NCBI GenBank assembly: GCA_051294905.1
Contig: CM119373.1
Location: forward strand, 4,652,001-4,716,000
Direction: 5' to 3'
DNA: 64,000 bases
From: Botryllus schlosseri
Lineage: Eukaryota
Shown piece after piece: positions 4,169-64,000 of this stretch. Both the position numbers and the translations under genes were made by a program. The notes beneath the pieces were generated by a model that saw nothing but the letters and a program-made list of their open reading frames with translations, made no database searches and was not told the origin of the DNA. How positions within the stretch are numbered: position 1 is the first letter of the stretch; the number at the start of each line of letters is the position of its first letter.

Positions 4169-4524
4169 GTAGTATCCGATTCGGGAAAAATAGTTCGTGC
4201 CGAAATCATACTCAATTAGTCAAAGATACAAATTGTTCTTTATATTATGGGACTGAAATCAAACTGCGATATGACGATTCAGTTTTGGGTGCAATGTTCG
4301 TGGCACTATTTCACCAGTAGAACGGCTTAAGGATATTATATGTGAAATTTATTCATTGCGGAAAGACTGCTACTTCGTTCATGCCGCAGTACAGCATGCC
4401 AACTTGATTGCTTGTATATGCATGATTACCTGTTCATATATTCGGGCATCACGATACGAAAAACCTGTAACTGCTGAAAATTGCAAGCCACGTTCGTCGG
4501 CTTATGTTGTCGACATTTCAGCAT

Positions 4525-4712
4525 ATTTTCGTGCTGGTGACGTCATATTTTGTGTTACGATTGTTGATATACGCTGTTCTTTCGAATTCTCTACTAGTTG
4601 CTGACGATTAACCCTGACGAGTGTCAGCCGAAAATATTCGGGTTCATTTCAATATGAATATACTATTCAATTGTATATTGAAGTTCTGTACCTCAAAGAA
4701 GCTGTTTAAAGT
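4525..4712 (+). mobile_element. Solo Penelope-like pseudo-LTR fragment
   Basis: Homologous to the pLTR of the PLE remnant (reverse complement of 24245-24390 plus 25686-25735) and to 26070-26172 and 63920-64000. Confidence 0.75.
4600..4645 (+). ncRNA. Minimal type-I hammerhead ribozyme motif, intact core
   Basis: aacc CTGACGA g-tgtcagc-c GAAA atat TC gggtt: core 4614-4620, GAAA 4630-4633, palindromic ATAT stem III, predicted cleavage after C4639; stem I has one mismatch. Confidence 0.75.
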
Positions 4713-19700: not shown

Positions 19701-22700
19701 CACTAATATGTCACGATTCCGCTGCCTACTTACCTCGCATGCGTAATACTCAGATTAAAAATATAGGCAATGTGGCAAAGAACGAGTAGTAATTAAAGTC
19801 ACAAGAAATCACACTCTCCATATAGTTGAGTTCAAATCTTCTTTGATGCAATTGTCACCATACGCATTATACGGTATGCATTTCAAATAGTGACGTGATG
19901 CGTTTCCAAATCCGTTATTAGTAAAACAAGTCAATCAGTGCTCGCAATTACCATATGACTCATCATATTTATTACCCATAAACAGGCCGTGTTATTTTTG
20001 GCATTTCAGGAGCCAGATGCCAAAACTGCCAAAAATAAAAATTTGAAAATGCCAAAATTAAGCAATTTTTGGCATATGCCAAAAATAACACGACCTGCCA
20101 AATAGTGTATTTCGTTCATGGTGTTGTGTTAACAGGACCGCGTTACAAGCGAGAAGAGCGTTTGTGAAAGGCAGGTTTCTTAATCTGGGTCCAGCCCACC
20201 CATTAGGGCTGAAAGCATGGTGTCCTAAATGGTGTGGGCAGAGCGAGATTGAACGGCTGACTGCATGTGGTTTACGTCATACTTTCCATTTGTCCGAAGG
20301 CAATTTTACGACCATTTTGACCGGCTAGTCGAGCGCTAAATTTGATAAAACGGGTATCAATGAGAAGCTGCCGCAGTACTGATTATTAAAATATAAATTA
20401 TATTCTGCTCATGAAACTGGAACCCCCAAAATCAACCACGATTTTTGCATTGTGATCGAGGTGAACATTGTGACGCAAGAAACTGACTGGCTATTTCTGA
20501 GCTGCATCGTCTCGTTTTGCCAGACAGTCTTGTTGCGTCAATGTTCTTAAACAAGCTAACCTTCCCAGGACTCTTCCATGCGAGTTGGTAATATTAAAGC
20601 CACCTGAAGTGAAAAAATATCGGTAGACTGAAGGAGAAATGATAGTCGGGCTACTAAATAGAATGTGTTGAGAGACAACACAGGAAACTCCTGGAAAAGG
20701 ATCAGGAAGAAAATTATTTCCGCGACGAGGTCGATGGCACTGGCGGAGTGATCTCTTTTCATGATGTATGGAAGCCGGTTCGGCCTTCCAAAGATTTTGA
20801 AGCTCTGAAAACCTTTTGTGGATGACTGGCAACATTCTTTCCCTCAGCGGCTACTGTTGAAGCCGATATTTCCAAGATTCGCTGGGCGAGAAATGAATTT
20901 AGGAGAAACTTAGCTGACCTGAGTTTGGAAGCACTGCTACAGTGCAAACGATTAAAGTCTATTCAACAGCTGTGACAATCAGCTGTTGAGCGTGTTTGTT
21001 AGGCTTTTCTTTCATTTTTTTGGCTTTTCTTTCATTTTTTTGCTTATTGGCACCGATTCCGATGGATACTGCACATTTTGAGGTTTCGTTTGATATAATT
21101 AACCAATGAAATCGTTAGGTTTATTCTTCTCTTATTGTTTGTTGGCATTGATTATACGTGGATGCTGCGCATTTTGTGGTGTCTTTTGACAAACTAGCCC
21201 AAATAAAGCGTTTTTGTGACTAATTCGAGGCTGAAACTATCTATTTAGAGGACGATGCCAAAACTGCCAAAAATAAAAATCGAAAAATGCCAAAAATAAG
21301 TTATTTTTGGCAGTTTTGGCATATGCCAAAAATAACACGTCCTGCCCATAAAGGATGACCGGGCACGTCAAAAAAGAAAGCATAAAACTGATACTCAAGG
21401 AAGGTTTAGAATACTAAATATTGGTATATACTGGAGTCAGGAGTAAACCCGCCCTTTTAGTTTTTGCCGAGCATGTCGGAAAGATTAAGGAAATTAATCA
21501 AAGTCGGTCTTTTGACAAAAACACGGAACACTCAGTCAAGAGAAGGTGAATTTCAGAAAAACTGCAAGCTTCGATCAACATTTAGACTACTGCTCGGAAG
21601 GCATCGACCAAAACAATAAGCTTTGTACCAACATTGGGATCTAGTCACTACCTTCGAGTCACGAGTCATTTCGAGTCATTGCACATTTTGACTCGAGTCA
21701 AGTCATGTCAATCGGTTTTCGAAGGTGACTCGAGTCAAGTCAAGTCACTCGATTTTTGGAGGGGACTCGAGTCAAGTGCAGTCAAGTCAATTCAAGTCAA
21801 GTCACGAGTCAAGTCAAAATTCAAGTCAAGTTGCCTATTCGTATTATAAGGCATGATTACGTCATTACATTTTGCTAGCTGTCTGAAATACATATTGAGT
21901 GGTCATTGATTTTAAACCGATGAACGAATATAGAGTTGAATAGGGTTGTTCACTAGGGTTGTTCAAAAAAAACTTTTTTTTCCAAATCTCACTCGCCTAC
22001 TGACTAAATCGTCAGGTTGTCCAAGAAAACGATGCACACCAAATTTGACTCAATTCCAACCAGTCAAGGCCGTGCAATCTTGAATTGAAATTTTTAATTT
22101 ATTAAAATAAATTAAAAAAAAAATTTCTCAAATTTTTCTGTCAACCCCATGAAATTGTTGAGCTGTCTTCAAAGACGATGCAAAACAAATTTGAGTCAAT
22201 TCCGACTTGTAGAAGCGGAGCTATTTGAGTTTTTCGTTGATAATCCCCGGATCAAGGATAATCCGGCAAATATCAACGAAAAACGCGAATAACTCCGCTT
22301 CTACTGGTCGGAATTGACTCAAATTTGTTTTGCATTGTCTTTGAAGACAGCTCAACAATTTCATGGGGTTGACAGAAAAATTTGAGAAATTTTTATTTTT
22401 ATTTTTTTTAATAAATTAAAAATTTCAATTCAAGATTGCACGGCCTTGACTGGTTGGAATTGCGTCAAATTTGGTGTGCATCGTTTTCTTGGACAACCTG
22501 ACGATTTAGTCAGTAGGCGAGTGAGATTTGGAAAAAAAAGTTTTTTTTGTACAACCCTAATATACACCTAAGAAGGCGCTGTATCGCTCACATATACGTA
22601 GCCTCAGTTTATAGTTACCAACCAAAATAGGGAATAGAGAAACTAATTGATAAGACGCAATACTCTACCCTTTACTCATTTACATATTGATATGATACAA

Positions 22701-25700
22701 TTCGAGCCTGCACCAAAGGTTGAGGAGTATATAAACTATATTCGAAATCAAAATCAATAAAACAAAAGGCTTGGTTAAGGTAAAAACAGAGAACAGAAAT
22801 AGATAATTTTCTATTATATTACTTTACTGCTCGTTTACAACAACGTAAGCTGTAAGGTTCGATCACTTCGTTTGTGGTCAATTTATTTGTGTAGCCTCAG
22901 CAAAACGCACCATCTCTCCCGAGTTACACCAGCCTTCCGCGAAAAATCCTAACATATGCAAGATACAGTGATTTTCATCGATACTGTTTAATTTATGACT
23001 TGGAAATTAACTCGGGAATTTTCCTTCGAGTCACGAGTCAATCCACATTTCTGATACGCCGAGTCAAGACATGTCAAGTTATGTTAGCAAAGTGACTCGA
23101 GTAAAAGTCAAGTCATGCAAAAAATGTGATTCGAGTCATCCCAACATTGCTTTGTACATCGCATATATACTTTTCAGAGCAGGGGTTCTCGAACTTGGGG
23201 CGTGAAAGCATCTGTAGGAGGCGCGAAGCCGAAGTTTGATGAATTTTTTTTTTCGCGCTCGGCATGATCTATCCCAAGCTTATACTTGTTGCACTGGTTG
23301 CACTGTGTATTGTCTGACTTTTATAATTCAGAATTCTCTCATCAACAGCCATAACCTTTCATGCCACCAGACCATCTATTGGGATTGCTAGCATAGCGGT
23401 TGAACCGATAATATTTTGTGATATCAAGTTAAGGGGGCACGAAATTTGTCACTATAATAAAGGGAGGCGTACCTAAGAAATTTGAGAATCACTGTTTGAG
23501 AGTCTTAATGAAAGAACGTAGATGGGGATTTAAAGAAAGTTAAAATGTATCATGTTTAACATTTTCTCGAATCACGAGGGCAAATGTATATTTTGTTAAT
23601 TAACCGTCACTTTCTCATTACTTTAAATCAACACATTCACTGAGCAACATTTATTAAAAATGTAGTGAAGAAATATAATTAAAACACGCTGGAGAATACA
23701 CGCTGGGGGCGTGTCTAGAAAAGTTTGAAACCGCGGCTATAGGTTTTTGTCACTTTTTTCCGTGATAAGCTTTACATCCTAAAAGGCCTTTCCATTTTCC
23801 CTTCAGTATCATGCCTTGCCTTAAGCCGGAATATATCGAATAAAGATTTAAAGTGAATTATGGGCTTATTGTAATAATTAACGGCAGAATGGACACAAAT
23901 AATAGCGATTGTTCGTTACTCTTTAGTTCTACGTTTTCTTTCTTTCCGACATGCAACCAGAGTTCAAAGAACTTTTTCACCACTTTGATCGACCACGGAT
24001 GTCTCACATTCACTTCAAGAGTTATTGAAGTAGCCTACAGAACGTCAATATATTCATTGAATACTGTTTTGGTCTGTATGCTTTAATCTTGAAGTTTACT
24101 TTAAATACGATTAATCCTTGTATAAGTGGATAAATGCTCGATGTATATATAGATTCAGGATTCAGACCCGCCAATTATTTCATTTTCCGATATCCGGCCC
24201 GCCGGCTGGAGTAGTTTCCCTCCCCTGTCATATGGTATTTTATTTAAAGAGCTTTTTGAAGGTACAGAACTTCAATATACAATTGAATAGTATATTCCCA
24301 TTGCAATGAACCCGAATATTTTCGACTGACACTCGTCAGGGGTAATCGTCACCAAAGCAACTACTAGTAGAGAATGGGAACGAACATTGTAATACAGACT
24401 TGGACAACTAGAAAATTGTCAGCTTTTCCAAGTTAGATTAGAATTAGAATTAGAGCTACAGAAGCTGTTCCAAATTAGATTAGAATTAGAATAAGAGTTA
24501 CATAATTTTTCCGAATTAGATTAGAATTAGAATTAGGGCTACAGAGATTTTTCCAAATAAGATTAGAATTAGAATTGTAGCTACGCATTTTTTTCCAAAT
24601 TTGATTAAAATTAGAATTAGAATTAATTCGCTAAAATTTTGAATTTGACTGAAATTGTGAATGAGAAATACATACAGCAAAAATCGAGTTCGGTTCTCAT
24701 CCAATTACAATGCATTCTCATACGCATGAGAACGGTTAACGTATGTAAGTGTCGTGATGACTCGAGTCATGACTGGACTCGAGTCACTTTTCCGAATGAC
24801 TTGACATGACTCGAGTCACTTGGCCAAAATGACTGGACTTGACTCGGCGTTTCAAAAATGCATATTCACTCGTGACTCGGAGCAAAATTTACGAGTAAAT
24901 TTTAAATCATCAAATAATTTGTGTCGATCAAAATCGCGGTATCTTTCATATATTCGAATTGTTCTCGATACGCTGGTGTGACCTGTGAGAGTGACCAATT
25001 TCATTCGTTCAATGATTTCCCGTTTTACTGAGCCTCCATTGTCCTATCACAAATATATTAACCCCAAACGACGTGATTGGAGCTTACAGCATACATTTTC
25101 GGTAAAGTAAGAAAGCAATAAAATAGCAAACTATCCATCTCTGTTCTGAGGACTATGGTCATTGGTGCCCGGTGCTCAACTTAACGCCTAATCAAACCTC
25201 TTGTATGATTTAAATTGAATCTGAAACAATCATCATCTTTTCGCTTGATGTAGTTGAGGGCATGGAATTGAACAATCTGTTAACTATCTCTCTTTCTTCG
25301 CTGCTGTGCTGTTTGTGATCGAAACTAGAATGTTGTTCGCAGACTACCTGCTACTATGCGAGCATGGCTATTATTCGTCACAATAACTACTATGATTGTA
25401 CTTGTGCAGTGTAAGTAATGCGATGGAGGCTTGGCACTGGATTTTCCGGCGCGAGAAGGATATTATCGTTAACTCGCTGCAAAATGCCGCGAACAAAGAG
25501 GCATTTTCAGGAAAAGAAAAAATAGATTAGAACTAAAATTATAGTATAGAAACATTTCACAAATCAGATTAGAATTGGAATTGGAGCATATGAATAATTC
25601 ACAAGTTAGATTAGAATTAGATTACTGGCATTTTGTTCTGATTCAGAGAAATTAGATAATATAAATATCTAGTTGTCCAAGTCTGCATTGTATATCAACA

Positions 25701-28700
25701 ATCGTATCACAAAATATGACGTCACCAGCATGAAATGAGATCTCAAATAAGAAAGCGTTCAGTGTACTATTTTAAGATGGTACACGAACTCCTTTTGTAA
25801 ACGAAGCATGGGCTGATGTATTTTAATGAAGGTCGACTTCAAGGCACTCAGATAAAAGTGTGAGCGGCTCCTCCCGATGACGCGAAAACTGTCATCTCGA
25901 TAGTTTCTCGCACAGTGGGATTACCCAATATAGATGCTTGCCAATGGCAAGATTTATGGCCTTCGAACGCTCAGCCTCAAGCTTCAGCGAATAAGTAAAG
26001 GTTGGGCTTTAACCGAGGGTGATGCACGTGCTCTGATAAATCTAGAGACATGCTCTGATGCTGGCTAATGTGTTCCTGCGTTCCAATTCTCTACTATAGT
26101 TGCTGATGTTTACTATTGACGAGTGTCAGCCGAAAATAATCGGGTTCATTTCAATATGAATATACTATTCTATCGTATAGTAATTTATGAAGACCGTATC
26201 ATGATGAGTGATCCCATTTCCAAAACTTCACTACCAATGATTTATGTTATGCCACTAAGCCTCATAGCGTACGCGTACACTTTTTCAGAGTCGCGTTGTT
26301 ATTCTACGTCTGCATAACTGACGGAATGTTCCGGCGAATGCTCGTTATGTTGACCGAATGGTTATACACTACAGATGCCAATAGCCTGGAACAACTGACG
26401 GAATTTCTTCGGGGTCAGAATGGTTCAATTACTTCCATTGCAACTAATGTTGTGAAGGATGAGCTGTCAACTGCAGCAGCGACTACTGCCATGGTTTCGA
26501 CAACGATAGATTACAAGTTGACAGCACCGACTTCGCAGAGCACAAATGCATCAGGTAACTGAAATACGTCATAGCGAAGTAATCGGAAAGCATAAATGAG
26601 TGTTGGTATTTAGGATTGAATCTCAACATTACCATGTTCATTCCAATTTTCATGCCCATGGGTAGTCGAAGTTTAGAGCGGTGAGAATCAAAAGCAAGTA
26701 AACGTACTCCCGAATTCAAAACGCCCCACAAGTAGAGAGGAAGATATTTTTAAATCACACCAAAACTACTACAGGAGTAGCAGAATAAAAATGCGTTGCT
26801 TCTGGAATTCAATACAAATAAGCAGATTGAAGTCGTAGATGGAGACGAGACTTGTCAGACTTTCGTTACTCGATTGCTGGTGAAAGGTAACATATTTACT
26901 ATGGAGGGTATGAGCTCGAGGTTCACGTTCGCTTTCATTATAACATCTTTGGTTGAAATTCTTTGCATTTGAGCTTCGAACTTCGAATCACTCTGAGCAT
27001 GGAACAGGCAGCATGTAAATGTGAACGCTGAACAATAGGGTTACCATATTTTGGAAGTATGAAAAGAGTACACTTTTCAAAATTTCGAGACTTGAAAAAC
27101 CCGAAATAAATCCTCGGAAATTGGTAAATTTTTCCCACTTCGTAGTCGGTTGAATGCAAAATTAGAACAATAGGTTAACTTTCAGCTTCAACTCCCGAAG
27201 TTCAGTTTTTCTTTCGCATTATTGGCTGGTTGATTAAGAAATAAATTCAAAAAAGGTCAACCTTCCGGCTCAGCTCCGGAAATACCCGCCGGAGCTTTAC
27301 TTCAGTGCTCTCAACTAGGAAGACAAAATTTCAAAAAAGAAGACATTTGGGAGTCCTCCGAGGATACTTTCAAAAAAGTAAAAAGAGGACAAATCCTCTT
27401 AAAAGAGGACGTATGGTAACCCTACTAAACGAGCATGCACCGTGCCAATCTCAAAAATCTTACTTGCTTTGTTACAAAAGTTTGCTCGAAACATTTTGCT
27501 TTCCGTTTGTGAATATCTCGCGACTCTCTGTTGTGAACTTGACCCGCAGTCACACAACACCAAGAACGAAATACACTATGCACAGGCCGTGTTATTTTTG
27601 GCATATGCCAAAACTGCCAAAAATAACTTATTTTTGGCATTTTTCGATTTTTATTTTTGGCAGTTTTGGCATCGTCATCTAGATAGATAGTTTCAGCCTC
27701 GAATTAGTCACAAAAACGCTTTATTTGGGCTAGTTTTTCAAAAGACACCACAAAATGTGCAGCATCCACGTATAATCAGTGCCAACAAACAATAAGAAGA
27801 AAAAACCTAACGATTTCATAGGTTAATAATATCAAACGAAACCACAAAATGTGCAGTATCCATCCGACTCGGTGCCAATAAGCAAAAAAAAAGAAAGAAA
27901 AGTCTAACAAACACGCTCAACAGCTGATTGTTACAGGTGTTGAATAGACTTAAATCGTTAGCACTGTAACAGTGCTTCCAAACTCTGGTCAGCTAAGTTT
28001 CTCCTAAATTCATTTCTCGCCCAGCGAATCTTGGAAATATCGGCTTCAACAGTAGCCATTGAAGGAAAGAATGTTGCCAGTCATCCACAAAAGGTTTTCA
28101 GAGCTTCAAAATCTTTGGAGGGCCAAACCGGCTTCCATGCATCATGAAAAGAGATCATTTCGCCAGTGCCATCGATCTCATCCCGGAAAGAATTTTCTTC
28201 CCGATCCTTTTCCAGGAGTTTCCTGTGTTGTCTCTCAACACATTCTATTTAGTAGCCCGACTATCATTTCTCCTTCAGTCTACCGATATATTTTCGGAGG
28301 ACTTTTGTCACTTCAGGTGGCTTTAATATTATTTGTTGCGTCACAATGTTCAACTCGATCACAATGCAAAAATCGTGGTTGATTTTGGGGGTTCCAGCTC
28401 CATAAGCAGAATATAATTTATATTTTAATAATCAGTACTGCGGCAGCTTCTCATTGATACCCGTTTTGTCAAATTTAGTGCTCGACAAGCCGGTCAAAAA
28501 TGGTCGTAAAATCGCTTTTGGACAAATGGAAAGTATGACGTAAACCAAATGCAGTCAGCCGTTCAATCACGCTGTGCCCACACCATTTAGGACACCATGC
28601 TTTCACCCCTAATGGGTGGGCTGGACCTAGATTAAGAAACCTGCCTTTCACAAACGCTCTTCTCGCTTGTAACGCGGTCCAGTTAACACAACACCATGAA

Positions 28701-31700
28701 CGAAATACACTATTTGGCCGGCCGTGTTATTTTTGGCATATGCCAAAAATTGCTTATTTTTGGCATTTCCAAATTTTTATTTTTGGCAGTTTTGGCATCT
28801 GGCTCCTGAAATGCCAAAAATAACACGGCCTGACTATGCATGTAGGTATAGTCAGCGAATGATGCTTATGCAACCAATCGAATAAATTGATATAAATAAT
28901 GCATCGTCACCTGATGTAAAAAATCGAGCAGCCGTGCGGCATCCATCTTTATTTGATTTGTTGGTTGTATCATAAAACCCAAATCTGTGCGTTTGTGGTG
29001 TTGGCTACTGCATTACTTTATGGGGTAATATCGGAAGCAAGTGTATAATCCCGTTTTGCACTCTGCTCAATATCAATGTAGCAATAGTCAGACGCCGAAT
29101 TCATTGTCCGGTAGGGCACTTACAGTTAAGCAGTGGTTCCCAGCCTTTTTGTCTTCATTCCCCACTTCAGATTTATTCCGAGCCTTCATTCCCCACCAGG
29201 ACCGTAACAGCACTTAGTCAGCCCTGCCAAAAAAAAACGTGGATTTTTACCCCACAGGGTGATAAACCCAACTAATCCCCCCAGCCCCGCTGAGCCTGTA
29301 CACTGTAAAAAATCTGGTAGATTTACTGGGAAATCTCTGTAAATTTTACAACGAATTACCGGTCGCAGCCAATAACTGTGCGTAGCTTGTAATTTTACAT
29401 TTTGATATGTGATATTACCTTAGTTTAGCTGTGAAGTCAAGTTGCCAGAATTTCCTCGCAAAATTACTGACAGTTACTCGTAACTGCAGTTTACAAGGCT
29501 ATTGGGAAGATTGATTAGCTTCATAATCGCTGCAGCCAATATATACGTGGAAATGAATGTTACTGATATATCATTCTCGTGGTGATTTGACTTGATTCAA
29601 CCTCGTTCGCGAAACTGGGGTCTGTCGTACGGAAATTGTTGGCCCTGGTACCAATTTCAGTATAGTACATAGTAAGTAGGGTACAAGAAACAACTGACAA
29701 TCGTAGCTAATGTAGTTACACCATAGCCATTATAATATATTATAAGGCTATATGGCCGTTCTCGCTGGTTACATTCGTTGTTACGGATACGGCTGATAAG
29801 TTAGAAAATCAGTTTAGGATGTATAATATTGTTCGGGAAACTAGAAATATCAGCACCGCATGCTCAGTTGACCATTTGCTAATTGGCGGACAAGGCGACC
29901 TGTAATAGGTTACAATAGGTTACCGTTACGCGTTACTGGTTTTCTGAGATTTGTAGTAAACAGCCAACGCACAACTGTGACATCACAAGGAGCGTCTCGT
30001 TTAGTAAGTACAGAAAGTAGTGAACAACACTTGGGATAAATATCAATTTATACGAAATTAGACGGAAAAGAAAGGAACTATATGTACTGATAAATGTTTC
30101 TGTATGAAAGAGAAATAACCTAAGTCAAACATTATAACGTGGCCAGCAAATATTATTGGTGGCATGTCAGCGGATGAATACGACTTATTTCGAAATCGTT
30201 CGAGTGTCGTATCGTTATCTGACCATTATTGAGATTTGAGCAAAGGGTGATGCGAAGCTTGTTGTGCTTGAAGAAAGTGGACACGATCGTGGAAGATTCC
30301 TAGGAACGCTGAATGGAATACGCATCGTAAAAGGTACAGTACTACATAGTACTTGTTACCGTGAATATCTGCGACTGTGCAATGTGCACACCACTTTGAT
30401 TTCATGATTGAAATATTTCATTCTCCGCATTCTCTGTTCTATTTTGGGATACTAGCAGTGGCGGCTCGTCCTATAGGGCAACTGGGGCATTGCCCCACCT
30501 AAAATTCTGTTCAATAACAATTTAACCATTTATAGACGCACAGCAATCAATATATACCGAGATCACAGCGAAACCCGCGTTCTTCTTGTGCTTTCGCTTG
30601 CAAACGCCCATACATAGCGAAGTCTCTGCGAAAATCGAATTCTCTTCTGTGTTTTCGCTTTGTGAATGCCTAGCCGGGGCTTGCCCCGGTAGCGCTCATA
30701 ACAAGCTTTCACTATCTATTCTCTCAAAGCCGCGCACAATAAAGAAACGGTGATTTACTCTCTCCTATTCGTAAAATGGCCGAGCAACCGGGGCAAATAT
30801 GCCTACTCGCCCTTAAGGTGTGATGTAACAATCGTATCTATATCTGAACTCGGTTACCGTAATATGCGTTGAGTCGACCTTTGCTGGTATAGGTCGATTT
30901 TGACGGTGTTTCGCACCATGATAATTCTTGAAACTTGGTATGATATGTCGTGAAGGTAGTATTTAACACTGCTCCAAGTTTCAGGCTTGCTACTTAAAGA
31001 TAATGGTAGTAATTCCGTTTCCGAAGTTCAGTGTGTGCTGATCTATCATGTACATAGTACAGCAAACAGATTTTACTCAAAAGCCGGTATTGGTCTCCAT
31101 TGATTTTGACGATGTTCTATACCGAGGTCGGTCATGACATTTGGCACGGTAAGTGTTAGTATCGACCGCTGTAACAAGTTTTAAGTTTGTCACTGAACTA
31201 TGTGGGTGGTAATTTCGTTTCCAAAGTCGAGTAAGAGCTGACTCTTCATTTGTCGCCAACAAATTTACGCAAAAGCCGTTATTGGTCTCTATTGATTTTA
31301 ACGATGTTCCATACCTAGATCTGTCATGAGCCTTCACACGGTATGTCTTGATTTTAGTATCGAACGCGGTGCCAAGTCTTAAAGTTGACACTCAACGATT
31401 GAGGCAGTTATTTCGTTTTCGAGGTCGAGTATGGTAGAGATGCGCGCTGATCTGATACTTAGCCTACCTACGTCATTGCGGATCTCACGCAAAAGCCGGT
31501 GTCGGTCTGTGCTAATCTATAGTCTGCGTTCCATAACGAGATCGGTGATGATATTTCCATGATGATCGCATGAAACAGCTAATTAAGATTCTCGGTTTGC
31601 ATTCAAATATTCACATAATTTTATGTTCGCCAATGTCCATTTCACTGTGAATATGTGGCCTTCAAACCATTTGCTTACAATCCCCTGTCAATTGCGATAG

Positions 31701-43063: not shown

Positions 43064-46000
43064 ATGATGGATGGAACAATTGAAGGACTCTGCAAATTTG
43101 CAGCTTTAATATTTTGCTCCACAGGTATGTATTTTGTGTTAGCAAAGGTATATTTGAGTGATTTGAAGCAGCCAGGTATTCAGGTTGTTAAGTAAAATCT
43201 ACGTTTATACGGGATAGTTTAGAGCCCTCATATTCGTAATAATGGTCAGGATGCGTGTGTTGATGACGAAACGCGGTTGCATGCACTTCCTTGCACAATG
43301 ATTTAACGGGGCAACCGGCTCTAATATGATGCGGTCTCAAATTTGAGATAAAATCAGGAATAAACTTTTGGCTGCAGCTGAGTCCGGGATGTCGCATCAT
43401 GTCGATGCGAAGTCAGTGACGCATCACATATTGTCCACGCACTACTAAAAGAAGTGGGACTACAAGATGTCGGTGCTCCAGTAATTTCGCAATCGCAACT
43501 AGCCGCCACAACAGCATGCAGATTTACTTTCAAGCTAGAGTAGAATGGCGTGTTTCGGAAAAAGGATATAGCTGCAGTTCCATTGCGATGGCTTTCTGAA
43601 GAAAATGGCGTCGCCCAAAATGCATTCCCGATTTTATCTTTAATTCGAGTTCACGTGATATTCAGAGTGCAGTGACCTTTGAACTGTCATGTACCTTCAC
43701 AGAATTAGGAAGTCTAGCATTCGAATAAATGAGCAACTGTGACTAGGCCTACATATTCAAATTTATTCCAGAAGCTTTTCGGCTGATACTGATCAAGGGA
43801 TACCGTCACCAATAATGCGAGCAATCAAATAACTATGCTCAACAACAATTATTATCGCTAACTATGACGTCATAAGGAGTTAATGGAAAGTTCGAAAAAC
43901 GAGAGTACAGTAGCGCAGGACCGGAGATAGCGAAACAGAACAAGTTAATCCGCAATTTTCAAATGATACACAAATTTTTTCTGTTGGCATAGAATAGGTT
44001 GACTCATAGTGATGATGGTGGACTCAAGAACAGACAAATGAAATAAATGGCGACCATTGTTCAATATACAGAACGTTGCCCCATGATTATTAGCAGCCCA
44101 CGTATGATTTTCTAGTAAATGTATGCGGATGCGGATAGAAGGCTTTTGATCCATGGCCTGGTTGTGTTCGAGAACAAGCAGATTGTTTTGCTGCGATTTC
44201 CAGATAAAAGTTTTGACAGACGGTTGGATGGTTTCTTTGATAAGGCACTGCAACCGTTTGAAAGTTCTCCCTGCGTACCGACAATGGCAGTGGCTCCTGA
44301 ATTCATCAATGACGTTACTTTGTCGTAAAACGGGGAGAACAGCCTTTCGAGTTGCAGCAAACATTGGTATCGTGGTGAAAATAACATTGGCTTCCACCGC
44401 TGGATAACAGCGGTAGACTGCTGAAGTTGAATGTTTCTCAAATCGATCCAAGGAAGATGGATGTACAGTTGTACACATCTCTACTTTCACGAGAAACTTC
44501 TTCGGAAGTTTCGTTAGGTTTCGTATCATACGACTGACGTAACTTATTATTCATTGTCCGCTTGATGACATCCATCTGGGTATCCGTTGTCAGTGAAAAT
44601 TGTGCGGATATACTCAAGTTTACAATTCAAGATATACTCATAATAAGTCGTCAACGCCCGGTGGACCATGCAAGTTGCCGATAAATTGATTTTACGACTT
44701 TGTGGACTAAAAGAGTTCCATCGGAGGTAATGAACTGCCAATGTGGGCCTCCTGTAAGCAGAGGTTAGGAATTGACAGTTCCTTTTCCCCACCAGATTCC
44801 AGAACGTCAAGGAATGCCAGGCGGTTAGTAATTTGAATGCTCGCAAATCGCAATATGGCTGACGCCATCCCCTGATGAGTGTCAGACGACGAGCTTCGGG
44901 AAAAATATGTATATATTATTCAAATGTGTCATAAAGTTCTGTACGACAAAGCGTCTCAATATGTCAGTCGCAATGCCATTAATGACAAAAAAATGCAATT
45001 TCTCGTGTTGAACATTGATTCGATATGGATGAAGGCGACGATGCTGAGCCACATCATTTTAGATGCCGCCATACTGTTTACCTAGGACGTGCTATCTGAC
45101 CAGCTACATGAAAACGCTTCACAAACAGGGTGGCACTGACTAGAGTTGTAAATTGACTTGATGAGCAATTTTTTGATGACTCGTGGTCATTCACATTGTG
45201 TATTGACTCAATTTTCCTTTCCGTTGACGATAAATTTAGTGAAACACTATACCTGCGCAGTTCTGTTGGTGATTAGCATAGAGCAGGGCTGTAATGACCC
45301 GACTCGAGTCAGACTCGAGTCACGATTTACTGATGACTCGACTTGACTCCGGTCATTTTCCCAAAATACGGAAATGAATCAACTCGACTCGAGAAAATGT
45401 GTGTATTGACTCGACTTGGACTCGAGACTCAGACGGCCAAGAGCGACGTTTCATTATAATTTCGAAGAGTAGTAAAGTATAACCACCCTATTGGGAGTTC
45501 GTCTATTGGTAAAGGTACTTGAAAATGCCACCAGAAACTATCATAAGTGAGGAAAATTAGTAGCCTATATTATAATTGTGAATCCTTCGATATCAACAAA
45601 CATACTTATAACTGTGGGTTTAACAAGACATTGTCTGGAAACGGAGCAGTCAACACAACTCGAACCTCTGCTCGCTGACTTGGACTCGGACTTGACTCCT
45701 TGGCGAATTGAAAATGACTTGACTGGACTCGATTCAAAACTAAAAAAAAGTGAAATTGACTTGTGACTCGGAGCCTTGTGACTTGGTTACAACCCTGGTA
45801 CAGAGTACATCATCATGACAAGCTTGATTTGTGACTTCTTTATTTCACAGGTCAGATCGTTATATCAGAAGACCACAAGTATCGCAAAACATTCCACATT
45901 GTACGTATGTTGATTGATGCCGATTGAAAAATCATATACATTCTCAAAGCATGCTGCAAATTTATTAACAAATTTCATTCACCATATTACACTGTCTATT

Positions 46001-52000: not shown

Positions 52001-55000
52001 TGAAACATCTTGATCCGGACATGCTCTAGGTAAGAGTGATGCTTTCAAACTTACCATCATTAGAAAGAATGGTTAGTGCCTGTGGTACAGTTTGAGTTGA
52101 AGGGGCACTGCTCTCTAAATATGACGTGGTCTCAAATTAATCAGTACAAAAATTTCATTCGCATCAGCTATTCCGTACAGAAAGCCACTGTAAAGAAATT
52201 GTAGCTAAAAGATAATTGAAACTATCTCCATTTCACACTAGCTGCCTAAATCAATGTACTATATTGTATCGAGGTTGCTTTGTTTTTATTGCTTCACCTG
52301 TTGCAAAAATGTTTGAGTTTCGGTTCCACACATTCAATCTCCTAATGAAATTTTAATTCCGGTTCAGTGCATATTTCAAAATTTGACTGCTTTGCTTTGT
52401 AGAAAGCTGTTTCGACTTATGTACCTGAAGACGAAGTAAGCGAGATCAACGCGGTTCGAAATATCCTGGTTGATAGAATGAAGCGGGCGTTGATATCCCG
52501 AGGAGACAAAATGCTGTAATGTTATGGGTATGTTCTTCTCTTTCTGTTATCTATGTATTTGTTCCAATAAAGCTGTTGATTTTGAGAGAAGCCGTGATCT
52601 CTTCAAATATTTGTACCAAGTAGTTAATCTCTATCTATTAATTGCCTCTCATGATATATCGTATTCATTAGTCATGCTGAAATTGCATGACAATCGAAAT
52701 CAGGCCATACCTCAATACGTGCACCGTTTTTTATCTAAAGAAATACGTGTATATGAAGCGACACGTCGATGCACTCTTCGATATGCTGTGTCTTGTAATG
52801 AGTTAATGCTCATCTGCATATATCAAGTGATGAACTTTGACTCAATAAGATATTTTGTGATTGTGTTACAGCATCTCCAAATCTAGACCGGATTGTTTCT
52901 ATACCTACCATTCTGCATGAAAGATAATATGTTGATCAGGTACGTCAAATAATCTTTGTTTTTTTTTGAAAGGTTTACATTTGATTCTGATGGAATATAA
53001 TTTAGAGAAGTGTTTGCATGGGAATGAATCACCATTGACATTTTATTGCCGCAACCGCAACCAATGGAATAAGTTCAATGTTGATTACTAAAATAGGTCT
53101 CCACTTTCACCTGGCTACCAAATCAGCATATATGTATTTTGGCTGGAAATTGGGGCTATTCCGTTACTTTCGTCGTTTGGCAGGTCTACTTATGGTGAGC
53201 GATACGACAACTTTTTGCGTCAATACTATATTCATATTGTGTCTGAAAAAAGCAATGCCTGGTCCATGCCTGATCATACCCTATATTTCATAAGCTGAAT
53301 ACTATATAGCAGTGGTCGGGAACCTATGGCTCTTTTGGGTATAAGATATGGCTATTTACCAAATATTTATTTTTGTATTGAATTGATCAATATTGCAACG
53401 AGTTGTTGGTAAATTTTAATCGCGGCCAAAATAATTATTCTCGTGGCAGTACAAGTCTTTGAGAGGTAAGGACAATGTCGTGTTCATGTTTGAGTGCTCG
53501 GACCCCCTCTTTTCAAAATCATCAAATTTAAGTAACTGTCACGCCGGTGGCCAATATCACTCGCGACTTCTATGTACCCAACTCGAAATCTTGAATTGCG
53601 CGATACGTTAAGTAATGAAAGAGCATAGCAGATACGGCGGCGCCCATTTCAAAACGCAGTTTTCAAATACGCATTGTCTTCCTGATCTATGTCACGAAAT
53701 GAACTGTTGAGAATGTGACAATTAAAAATTCGAATTACAAACAACGCCATAGCTATCCACGTGTAGTCGCGGCGATAAAATGTATACGTGTAACGCAACT
53801 TTATGTTGACGTCGAATACTTTGAGAAGTCAATAAGTATTTAGATTTTCGTAATCAGTGTGACAGTCACATTCGATTAATATCAGTTGTAAAAAATTCTA
53901 AGCTACATATGAATTGCGTTATCAAGGGTGAGGCTTGGCCCGTCTGTTCTATACCTCTCGTTTCGACCTTCCTTTCCGAACAATAAATACCAGATTTTAC
54001 TGAGAAAATGTAGCGCTCACGAGGAATCCCATGCAGTGAGCTCGAATTAGTGCTACCATGACGTCTTGAATTTTCAATTGTGACGTAATAGTTGATTGAC
54101 ATGTATAGCTCTTTGTTAGTTGGGATGGAAAAAAATAGGGCCAATATGGCTCTTCGGACAAAAAGGTTCCCGACCACTGCTATATAGGCTAGGCTAGGCT
54201 AGTCTAGTCGATATGTATGTTTGCGTGTATATGTTTGACCCTTATTCTTTTTTGTTATATCAACAGACACCCAAGTATGGACCCTGTCCTCTGCTTCGAT
54301 ATGGCGAATGAAGAGTGGGCAGTCAGTTTTGAAGCGGAACACATGACACAAATACACAGCATTCATGAGGTATTGGCAGTGATGATATCAGTTCATTGAG
54401 TATTCAACATGCTATTTTTTACCCAAAATTATAAAATCTCCGACTTTCATGTCAATTAATTTTCATAAGCCGTGATTTGCTCGGTATTGATTAGTCATCA
54501 AAATCAGATATGGCACCCATTTGAAAATTCCTTAGCAAACAAAGCACTTGCTCTATAGCAGGGGTGGCCAACCTTTTCAGCCAAATGGCCACACGAAATT
54601 GACGAACCGTTGCGCGGGCCACTTGAATGTTGATGTCATTTTTTTCATTGTCCGATAGGAGCAAACCAGATTAGGTAATGGTAGTAATAGAACCTATAAT
54701 CAAAATCAATAACAATTTGCCATGTGCTAGCTATTGACGTAGCCAGGAGCCAGACACGTTTTCGTAAATTTTATTTGTTGGTATATGACCATAAAGTAGA
54801 ATATTTCGCAGCGGATTTATTTGACTTGGAATTTTTCTTAGCCCTTTGCGCGATTTATGGTCACTTGATTTCTTGCCCCTAATTTACAGAAACGAGTTCA
54901 ACTATAGTGACACGCGCAATGGTTTGTTGGATTATTGTGGCCCTCTGGCCGAAAAGGCTGGTCGCCCCTGAACTATAGTAATTGAAAGATTACAGCAATG

Positions 55001-62485: not shown

Positions 62486-63565
62486 GTGAGAATGTATTTG
62501 CTTGCATCGATCCACAATAGCGGAATCCAGTATCCGAATGTATTGTTGACGATACCGAGTTGCTGAAACGCAACGAAATTCGTCGATTAAACATAAGTTA
62601 CGGTGATGTATTATTGATATATTACCACTTCAAGCTAAACATTCGTATAATATACGATGTGCGTTACGGCTACGTCATATATGATCTGTGAGAAATGTTG
62701 TTGCTTCAAGGTTTATTAGACATTCGTCTTGACGAATCGGCGGTATGCTTTCTTTTCTCGCCTATGCAGCTGATTTAACGCTTGGTTCAGATAGCACCCA
62801 TACATATCAGTTTATTGTGTGGTACACTATACCTTGATAGTTTATTGATACGAACATAACATAAGATCCTTACGCGCAGGACTGCAGAACACGACTGACT
62901 ATCGTCGGTTGCTCGACGCGTTAGAACACAATGTAGTAAGCCAGTAACTGTTATCAAGTAAAAATATTGTCCAATGACAATACAGATGACATTGAAAAGT
63001 GAATTTCTACTGAATTATGTGTACATGAAATTGACTTCTGCTCAAATTAAATATCGCATTGTTGTAATGTAAATAAGTAATCGAGATGTTTGACTATATC
63101 TTTCGCCACTACCCCAACTTTCCCAGTCTTATCAGTTTGAAATCTTTTCAATCTAATGTTCAAGAGGAGTGCAGTTATACCCAATCCTATATGCTATGTA
63201 AAGACCGATTTCAATACATTAATCATGACAAGATGATTTCACTGTTCTGACTGAGACTTAATAACAATCTTGTTCAAAGCAAATGATCAAATTTGTGATG
63301 ACAACGATTTTACTAACAATATTGTCCATGTGCCTATATGTATGGATAACGATACATTGTTATATTCGACATCACACCCTCCGTAGGTTGTATGGTATTT
63401 TATCAAGAACATATAATGAAGAATGATTCCAATTTCATAACTTCACTGCCGCCGCATATGTAATATATATATATACATGATGTGACGCCAAGCCTCACAT
63501 GGTATGAATACTCTTCGTCAGAGTCAAAGACAACGATATTAGTTATTATTTTCAATGGAATGAAG

Positions 63566-63700: not shown

Positions 63701-63949
63701 AATTATCGAATGGGTCTGTCTATATAAGGGGTGACCAAGCCGCGGCCCGCGGGCTGGATGTGGCCCGCGAGGTAATTTCCTATTATATCATCGAAGTCCT
63801 GCTATATTATCGAAAATGAATTGCTGTGTGAACTTGCAAGGCCAACCAAACATTACAAGTCTTGCTGCGACACTTTGGATGTTGATGACTAAAATATCAG
63901 TTCCGACGCATTGGCAGATTACAATTAAATAGTATATTCATATTGAAAT

Positions 63950-63995
63950 GAACCCGAATATTTTCGGCTGACACTCGTCAGGAGTAATCGTCAGC
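63950..63995 (-). ncRNA. Minimal type-I hammerhead ribozyme motif, intact core, in a pLTR cut by the window edge
   Basis: Reverse complement reads gctgacgatt actc CTGACGA g-tgtcagc-c GAAA atat TC gggt; stem I has 4 bp including one G-U. Confidence 0.8.
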
Positions 63996-64000
63996 AACTA

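Follow-up and report, generated by a model that had tools for sequence, protein, structure and literature searches.

The hammerhead ribozyme at 4.6 kb of the analysed window (the whole 64,000-nt stretch of Botryllus schlosseri contig CM119373.1, positions 4,652,001 to 4,716,000 of the forward strand) belongs to a Penelope-like element (PLE), and combines a stem II of a single base pair with a six-pair helix that joins the 5' flank (4600-4605) to loop II (4623-4628). Judging by its covariation across families this helix is formed, a result that does not imply its formation together with stem I. The sequence-only reading had offered two roles for the pairing, an activating pseudoknot or a rival hairpin that sequesters the core. 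The first is quite probable in our view: the helix would be an activating pseudoknot, standing in for the hairpin that forms helix II in ordinary Penelope hammerheads. This role is favoured because both strands change in a matched way across families, because the same arrangement has a precedent in a type II ribozyme (Perreault 2011), and because the bases involved are free of the core and the stems.

The 4.6-kb copy (4510-4706, + strand) is the 5'-truncated 3' end, pLTR plus tail, of a Penelope-like element of family A. It measures approximately 190 bp, shares its sequence with genomic copies from about 4510-4527 to about 4706, and displays no ORF remnant upstream of the ribozyme. The conserved blocks stand in type I order (core CUGANGA at 4614-4620, GAAA at 4630-4633, UH at 4638-4639), which together with the pLTR location upholds the earlier identification of a PLE hammerhead with a 1-bp stem II. 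The core from C3 to A9 reads CUGACGA (4614-4620), C3 at 4614 placing the flank 7 nt ahead of it, as had been noted. Stem I (4 bp) is formed by 4610-4613 and the 3' strand GGGU (4640-4643) and is supported by covariation; in the window copy an A at 4611, where the family has C, introduces an A.G mismatch that is absent from the family. G10.1 (4621) pairs with C11.1 (4629) as the only pair of stem II, and closes a 7-nt loop II (4622-4628), the loop length that dominates genome-wide, which is composed of a variable unpaired base (4622) and the 3' strand of the pseudoknot (4623-4628). G12, A13 and A14 (4630-4632) are followed by a stem III of the palindromic, dimer type (AAUAUU, 4633-4638) and by C17 (4639). 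From the hammerhead numbering, cleavage is predicted after 4639, 14 nt ahead of the element's start codon (ATG, 4654-4656); the tail of the copy (4654-4706) comprises this start codon and the first codons of the element ORF, a segment whose homologue is the N-terminus of the 850-aa ORF that is intact at locus L309. None of the six copies in the window matched the Rfam hammerhead models at E values up to 1. The 4.6-kb copy itself, a truncated relic with a mismatch in stem I, is probably inactive. A second CUGACGA in its flank (4601-4607) was considered as a core and rejected, having no stem II and not being CUGANGA in families B-D.

The complementarity had originally been drawn with seven pairs, between GCUGACG (4600-4606) and UGUCAGC (4622-4628). 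Six Watson-Crick pairs stand, between GCUGAC (4600-4605) and 4623-4628, and the seventh, G4606.U4622, does not: it is unpaired in 38 of the 115 distinct rows of our alignment and is G.A or G.G in whole families. Position 4606 is a G in all 10 family representatives, facing U, A or G, and this G is no true partner of 4622; it is assigned to a short linker (4606-4609) leading to stem I.

For the test of the pairing, copies were gathered with patterns that fixed the core, including G10.1 and C11.1, and left flank and loop free, and were clustered on the sequence outside the helix; 40 of the collected stretches were picked for unusual loops. A single register, with the helix 14 nt upstream of C3, is shared by all families, both the related ones with ORFs about 35-80% identical and the one from metagenome records. 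Their flank/loop haplotypes are GCUGAC/GUCAGC in family A, ACUGGC/GCCAGU in family B (UCUGGC/GCCAGA in a subfamily), ACUAAC/GUUAGU in family C, GCCGAC/GUUGGC in family D, and UCUGAC/GUCAGA in family F, which comprises 67 of the 119 metagenome hits and probably comes from another host species. All six pairs are present in 26 of 28 distinct family F copies. The full set of six pairs is present in 99 of the 163 distinct genomic copies, five pairs in 28 and fewer in the other 36; the 64 copies missing at least one pair include three mismatched haplotypes that occur in two to three copies each.

After 21 copies with fewer than three of the four stem I pairs were dropped and four of the 28 F copies added, the alignment contained 146 rows, of which 115 were distinct. 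Over these 115 rows, 85.3% of the helix cells are paired and 62 cells are changed on both sides; shuffled alignments gave 80.4% and 21.1 cells, none of 500 reaching the observed values, although the relatedness of the families means that this test overstates significance. Sliding the register lowered pairing to 17-31%, with 3-21 two-sided cells. Stems I and III, used as positive control, displayed 84.0% paired and 89 two-sided cells, and the covariation of the helix is comparable to that of stem I. Two further measures, the number of pairs with a two-sided change and the number of further pair types, were not above the shuffles (91 and 271 of 500 reached them). Mapping the changes onto a midpoint-rooted ORF tree (48 fragments) yielded, when counted by eye, at least six two-sided events: pair 1 changed among G-C, A-U and U-A three times, pair 3 from U-A to C-G (D), pair 4 from G-C to A-U (C) and pair 5 from A-U to G-C (B), in addition to one G.U. 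No family departs from C-G at pairs 2 and 6, the lone two-sided change being that of a single copy (L279). In ten hand-picked representatives, 12 of 2,485 column pairs were fully paired with a two-sided change, four of them belonging to this helix, three to stem I, one to the stem III palindrome and four lying outside the model. Chance pattern matches carried the helix in none of 49 metagenome rows (the 50th being an unclustered F copy) and in one of 120 viral ones. The first and last loop bases could pair in several families, lengthening stem II to 2 bp, though not in A, D and B3; pair 1 holds in all. The evidence of pairing thus comes from related families that change both sides at a fixed spacing, and not from the agreement of copies within the window.

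The six pairs use no base of the core or of stems I-III, and for this reason the helix is compatible with the active fold and can coexist with every stem. This removes the ground for the second role, a plain hairpin of flank and loop II that traps the core, keeps the monomer silent and opens for an active dimer, which we consider highly improbable. Nested folding of monomers gave inactive folds in all eight families tried and, in four of them (B3, D, G and F), placed the helix without stem I and with inner pairs to the core, as such a hairpin would require. These inner pairs vary from family to family, and nested programs, which cannot draw pseudoknots, are forced to pick one helix. Silencing might well be useful to an element whose template RNA remains uncleaved at the site, as is also the case in Frangione 2024 (available portion of PMC11167929), but silence is already explained by the dimer requirement. 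An opened helix would moreover leave a 7-nt loop II closed by one base pair, and a plain hairpin has no need of a fixed 14-nt offset.

Loop II has a second potential partner in the ribozyme's own core, with which CUGAN (4614-4618) could pair to 4623-4627. In family A the core sequence CUGACGA recurs in the flank at a distance of 13 nt, and folding of the monomer predicts this core hairpin, with a mean pair probability of 0.76. Both points speak for a two-state gate, with loop II paired to the core (off) or to the flank (on) and their competition under selection. The loop changes of families C and D retain the core pairing by G.U, and 88% of its cells pair; transitions opposite G and U, though, preserve wobble pairs anyway. 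No covariation was seen for this pairing, its one two-sided cell being reached by 397 of 500 shuffles, and an invariant core cannot covary. Family B breaks the pair of A6, which is unpaired in 20 of 115 rows, and the predicted energies are -5.4 kcal/mol in A, -1.2 to -1.5 in B and +0.1 in D. We therefore regard the gate as very improbable: the loop II:core hairpin would sooner be a misfold, outcompeted by the flank, than a gate that has been conserved, and it is a likelier inactive fold in family A than the flank hairpin.

A third possibility is that the helix serves as binding site for the element's RT-endonuclease, by which the protein would recognise its template close to the 3' end, and contributes little to cleavage. 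The distance from the helix to the copy ends is indeed no more than about 100 nt, four positions of the flank show no or almost no sequence variation, and in the Anolis element, according to the available part of PMC11167929, ribozyme mutants left in vitro insertion unaffected and cleavage required protein. Four of the six pairs, however, vary freely in sequence, and conservation extends to the core, to stem I and to the palindrome of stem III, next to a 1-bp stem II that would otherwise be unsupported. We consider this binding-site reading extremely improbable.

The activating pseudoknot can be described in structural terms that start from what was established directly, namely the sequence, the pLTR location, the covariation of the six-pair helix and its compatibility with stems I-III. 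Six paired bases in a 7-nt loop correspond to the geometry of kissing loops. The flank strand would pair with the 3' six bases of loop II, and the resulting helix would stack on the lone G10.1-C11.1 pair, so that helix II would reach about 7 bp; such stacking is possible because the 3' loop base runs directly into C11.1. The length reached in this way equals that of the long helix II in ordinary PLE hammerheads, as though the 5' strand of the latter had been shifted to a place upstream of stem I. The variable first loop base would span the groove, and the short linker would join the far ends of the helix and of stem I, keeping stems I and II side by side if both form simultaneously. The pseudoknot would thereby favour the active fold and might enhance the rate; in family A it would in addition draw loop II off the ribozyme's own core. 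Stem III, palindromic and too short alone, most likely makes cleavage dependent on two copies (in a tandem transcript or on two RNAs) or on protein. The cut would fall 14 nt before the element start codon, where it may have some role in transposition.

Approximately 8,150 pattern matches were found in the 495-Mb genome against 5 in controls. They were obtained with three non-overlapping patterns having a 7-nt loop II, which matched 6,293, 473 and 1,387 times; when reversed, the same patterns matched 0, 0 and 5 times. Loops of 4-6 nt gave 77 matches against 19 in the control, and loops of 8-12 nt gave 329 against 34. In longer copies the stop codon of an RT-GIY-YIG ORF lies 108 nt upstream of C3, and in families A-D and F the ribozyme is located 100-200 nt past the ORF stop, in the pLTR of the RT-GIY-YIG element. 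Locus L309 (G000:C1:22033529-22041111, family C) is an intact tandem array of 2,778-bp units with 850-aa ORFs. In 8 of 10 representatives the first ATG past the cleavage site, 3-21 nt on, opens the homologous N-terminus. Among the Pfam domains of the ORF, RVT_1 scores above cut-off (E 7e-10) and GIY-YIG below it (E 0.014). A CxxC zinc finger between RT and endonuclease, which in the accessible part of PMC8557442 marks the Neptune and Nematis PLEs, was absent by eye in L020 and L309, and this lack of a linker finger points to the Penelope/Poseidon clade for the pseudoknot-bearing element. The stem III palindromes AAUAUU, AAGCUU and AACGUU change as palindromes between families, including a change from AU to GC.

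The ends of the copies cluster about 31-33 and 64-70 nt beyond the predicted cleavage site. Since integrated copies carry sequence on both sides of this site, their template RNA was uncleaved there, as is likewise described for the Anolis element in the portion of Frangione 2024 available (PMC11167929). Two RNA runs and two contig sets contained reads on both strands with no pile of ends at the site, which such libraries are not expected to show. In families B, C and G, an AAUAAA occurs 5-7 nt past the cleavage site and ahead of the start codon, where it might serve the unit upstream as a polyadenylation signal; it is absent in A, D and F. At 46 genomic places (e.g. L131, L140, L127/L133) a deletion has removed what lies between the CUGACGA of the flank and that of the core, with loss of stem I and the pseudoknot strand, and the short CUGACGA repeat seems to cause recurrent slips.

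The pairing is shared by the related families and by metagenome family F, but does not extend to PLEs in general. A second PLE family of the same genome, which has the CxxC linker (Neptune-like; L312), displays an ordinary hairpin helix II without the flank helix, as does a stray PLE contig 37% identical to L309, read by eye. The ordinary hairpin form yielded 402 matches against 143 in the control, and seven full-length copies of the hairpin-type family, approximately 3 kb apart, make up an intact tandem array at G000:C2:26986152-27006426. ORFs of 35-45% identity, those of the decayed single copies L060 and L294, still go with the pseudoknot form, and by these comparisons this form is the mark of one PLE lineage. 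In prokaryote genomes two relatives were found, one being the stray PLE contig with a hairpin helix II. Viral contigs gave 120 pattern hits, one of them with a stem I of at least 4 bp and none of this hammerhead kind, and no relatives of the ORF. A 1,451-bp contig of a cyanobacterial MAG (L460) carries a Penelope-like ORF end and a hammerhead with a U3-A8 core variant; the contig is probably DNA of an animal that was binned with the MAG. Repeat family E (L092 and 10 other loci), whose core-like match is accompanied by a 9-bp upstream complement, was set aside as a chance resemblance: this young repeat of 1.7 kb, which contains subrepeats of 170 nt, lacks both a PLE ORF and a proper stem III, and its second copy is degenerate.

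The closest structural parallel is offered by the pseudoknot hammerheads of Perreault 2011 (types I-III, including human C10), in which, as described in the available sections of PMC3088659, a Watson-Crick helix likewise links the stem I side to the strand after G10.1. At least four covarying pairs between the stem I and stem II sides, the hallmark of pseudoknot hammerheads, were also found here. One of those ribozymes, a metagenomic type II hammerhead with a stem II of 1 bp, depends on its 6-bp pseudoknot: breaking that helix slows the ribozyme, compensation restores it, and changes of spacing are harmful. The 6-bp helix and the tight spacing are shared with the present case, while that ribozyme was assayed with a stable stem III; here a type I hammerhead has a closed loop II and a dimer-type stem III, and is present in thousands of copies of an animal retrotransposon. 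A helix joining the stem I and stem II sides, required for cleavage, is similarly described in the accessible text on the non-circularly permuted hammerheads SGC and CSG (Eckert et al. 2023, PMC10085705), whose block order is permuted, whereas ours is ordinary type I. In the same text, type CSG is reported from only two metagenome sequences. Craig 2021, as far as its available part extends, describes Naiads as lacking canonical hammerheads; three Naiad consensus 3' ends in the accessible supplement of PMC8557442 (two of them directly before the headers Naiad-3_Nbra and Naiad_Hcon) were set beside type CSG.

In genomic setting, the ribozyme resembles the min-HHR of metazoan PLEs (Cervera and de la Pena 2014; available parts of PMC4209133), which are of type I, lie in the pLTR behind an RT-GIY-YIG ORF, have a short stem I, G10.1-C11.1 and a palindromic stem III implying dimers, and occur as thousands of dispersed truncated copies. 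Helix II is a hairpin of 3-8 bp in all 56 motifs of its Fig. S3, in most of which an additional base follows A9, and its descriptor requires a paired helix II; here, by contrast, stem II is 1 bp, a 6-bp covarying pseudoknot is present and there is no extra base after A9. Dimer cleavage was proposed there for hammerheads with a palindromic stem III, and PLE variants with a short stem III cleave as dimers (Lunse, Weinberg and Breaker 2017, as relayed in the available portions of PMC6765202 and PMC7761336); with the latter our family shares the diminished palindromic stem III, the PLE association and the dimer type. A 2020 review describes PLE motifs as being without tertiary contacts, from which the present pseudoknot family differs. 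Non-LTR retrozymes also carry type I hammerheads in animal repeats linked to PLEs (PMC7229834; bioRxiv 10.64898/2026.07.22.740005; both in the portions available), and are short non-coding tandem units with non-canonical loop contacts, in contrast to the 2,778-bp coding unit of L309. The short non-coding tandem unit of a retrozyme is not the form of the element; a lone run at L057:1004-1502 contains five retrozyme-like tandem hammerhead copies, 123-129 nt apart and derived from family A pLTRs, and could form dimers within one transcript.

In the literature searched, no description of a Penelope hammerhead with a 1-bp stem II and a flank pseudoknot was found, although the survey of Lunse 2017 may contain one. 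Pseudoknotted hammerheads with a 1-bp stem II are known; it is their presence in Penelope elements that may be new. A more ambitious proposition, which in its entirety we hold to be rather unlikely, is that an undescribed architecture (1-bp stem II, 6-bp flank pseudoknot, dimer-only stem III) is what a single Penelope/Poseidon lineage carries as standard in several animals, escaping both Rfam and descriptors of helix II, much faster than hairpin-type PLE hammerheads, and gated in the most expanded family by competition of flank and core for loop II. If true, it would provide a first handle on why and when Penelope elements cut their RNA, their hammerheads being reported as slow, without a contact joining stem I to stem II, and of a role that is not known. 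The six-pair brace, kept through matched changes, argues for selection on efficient ribozyme folding, and the families supply, ready-made by nature, the wild-type, disrupted and compensated sequences with which it could be tested directly. The commonest hammerhead of this genome, with approximately 8,150 matches versus about 260 above background for the ordinary form, is missed by surveys that rely on Rfam or on a paired helix II, and PLEs called 'core' only consequently merit re-examination.

The window contains six copies; seven pattern matches at up to two mismatches, against 1.3 expected, include one ascribed to chance. The second copy (63920-64000, - strand; hammerhead 63956-63981) belongs to family A and has an intact pseudoknot, both strands of its helix being identical to those of the 4.6-kb copy, in line with the full pairing claimed at 63.9 kb. 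The pairing called partial at 24.3 kb corresponds to a G.G mismatch at pair 2 of the third copy (24243-24386, - strand; hammerhead 24314-24339). At 26.1 kb, the flank GCUGAUG of a decayed copy (26081-26179, + strand; hammerhead 26116-26141) forms two G.U pairs, though its core (C3 to U) and stem I are broken; an endonuclease remnant lies nearby at 25762-25917 on the - strand. The copy assigned to another subfamily at 44.9 kb is part of an older insertion of another family (43752-44957), comprised of an ORF remnant (43954-44816, - strand), a decayed hammerhead (43771-43796, - strand) and an inverted pLTR whose hammerhead (44872-44897, + strand) has six pairs, with G.A at pair 1, and a mutated GAAA. 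Among 27-nt stretches taken at random from the window, 0.4% contain an exact 6-mer complement; the agreement among the window copies, which represent one or two close families, is inheritance and no evidence of pairing.

Several other sequences of the window were recorded. A weak Rfam Hammerhead_3 match (62533-62584, + strand; E 0.18), with a 5-bp hairpin followed by GAAA and no intact CUGANGA, is either a decayed ribozyme or due to chance. A repeat with a core-like CUGAAGA...CGAAA (52425-52465, + strand), also present at four other listed genomic places and without a stem I, is probably not a ribozyme. Long inverted repeats at 19977-21350 and 27577-28838, which are 94-96% complementary, and a 306-bp near-perfect palindrome at 21947-22566 are probably DNA transposons or MITEs.
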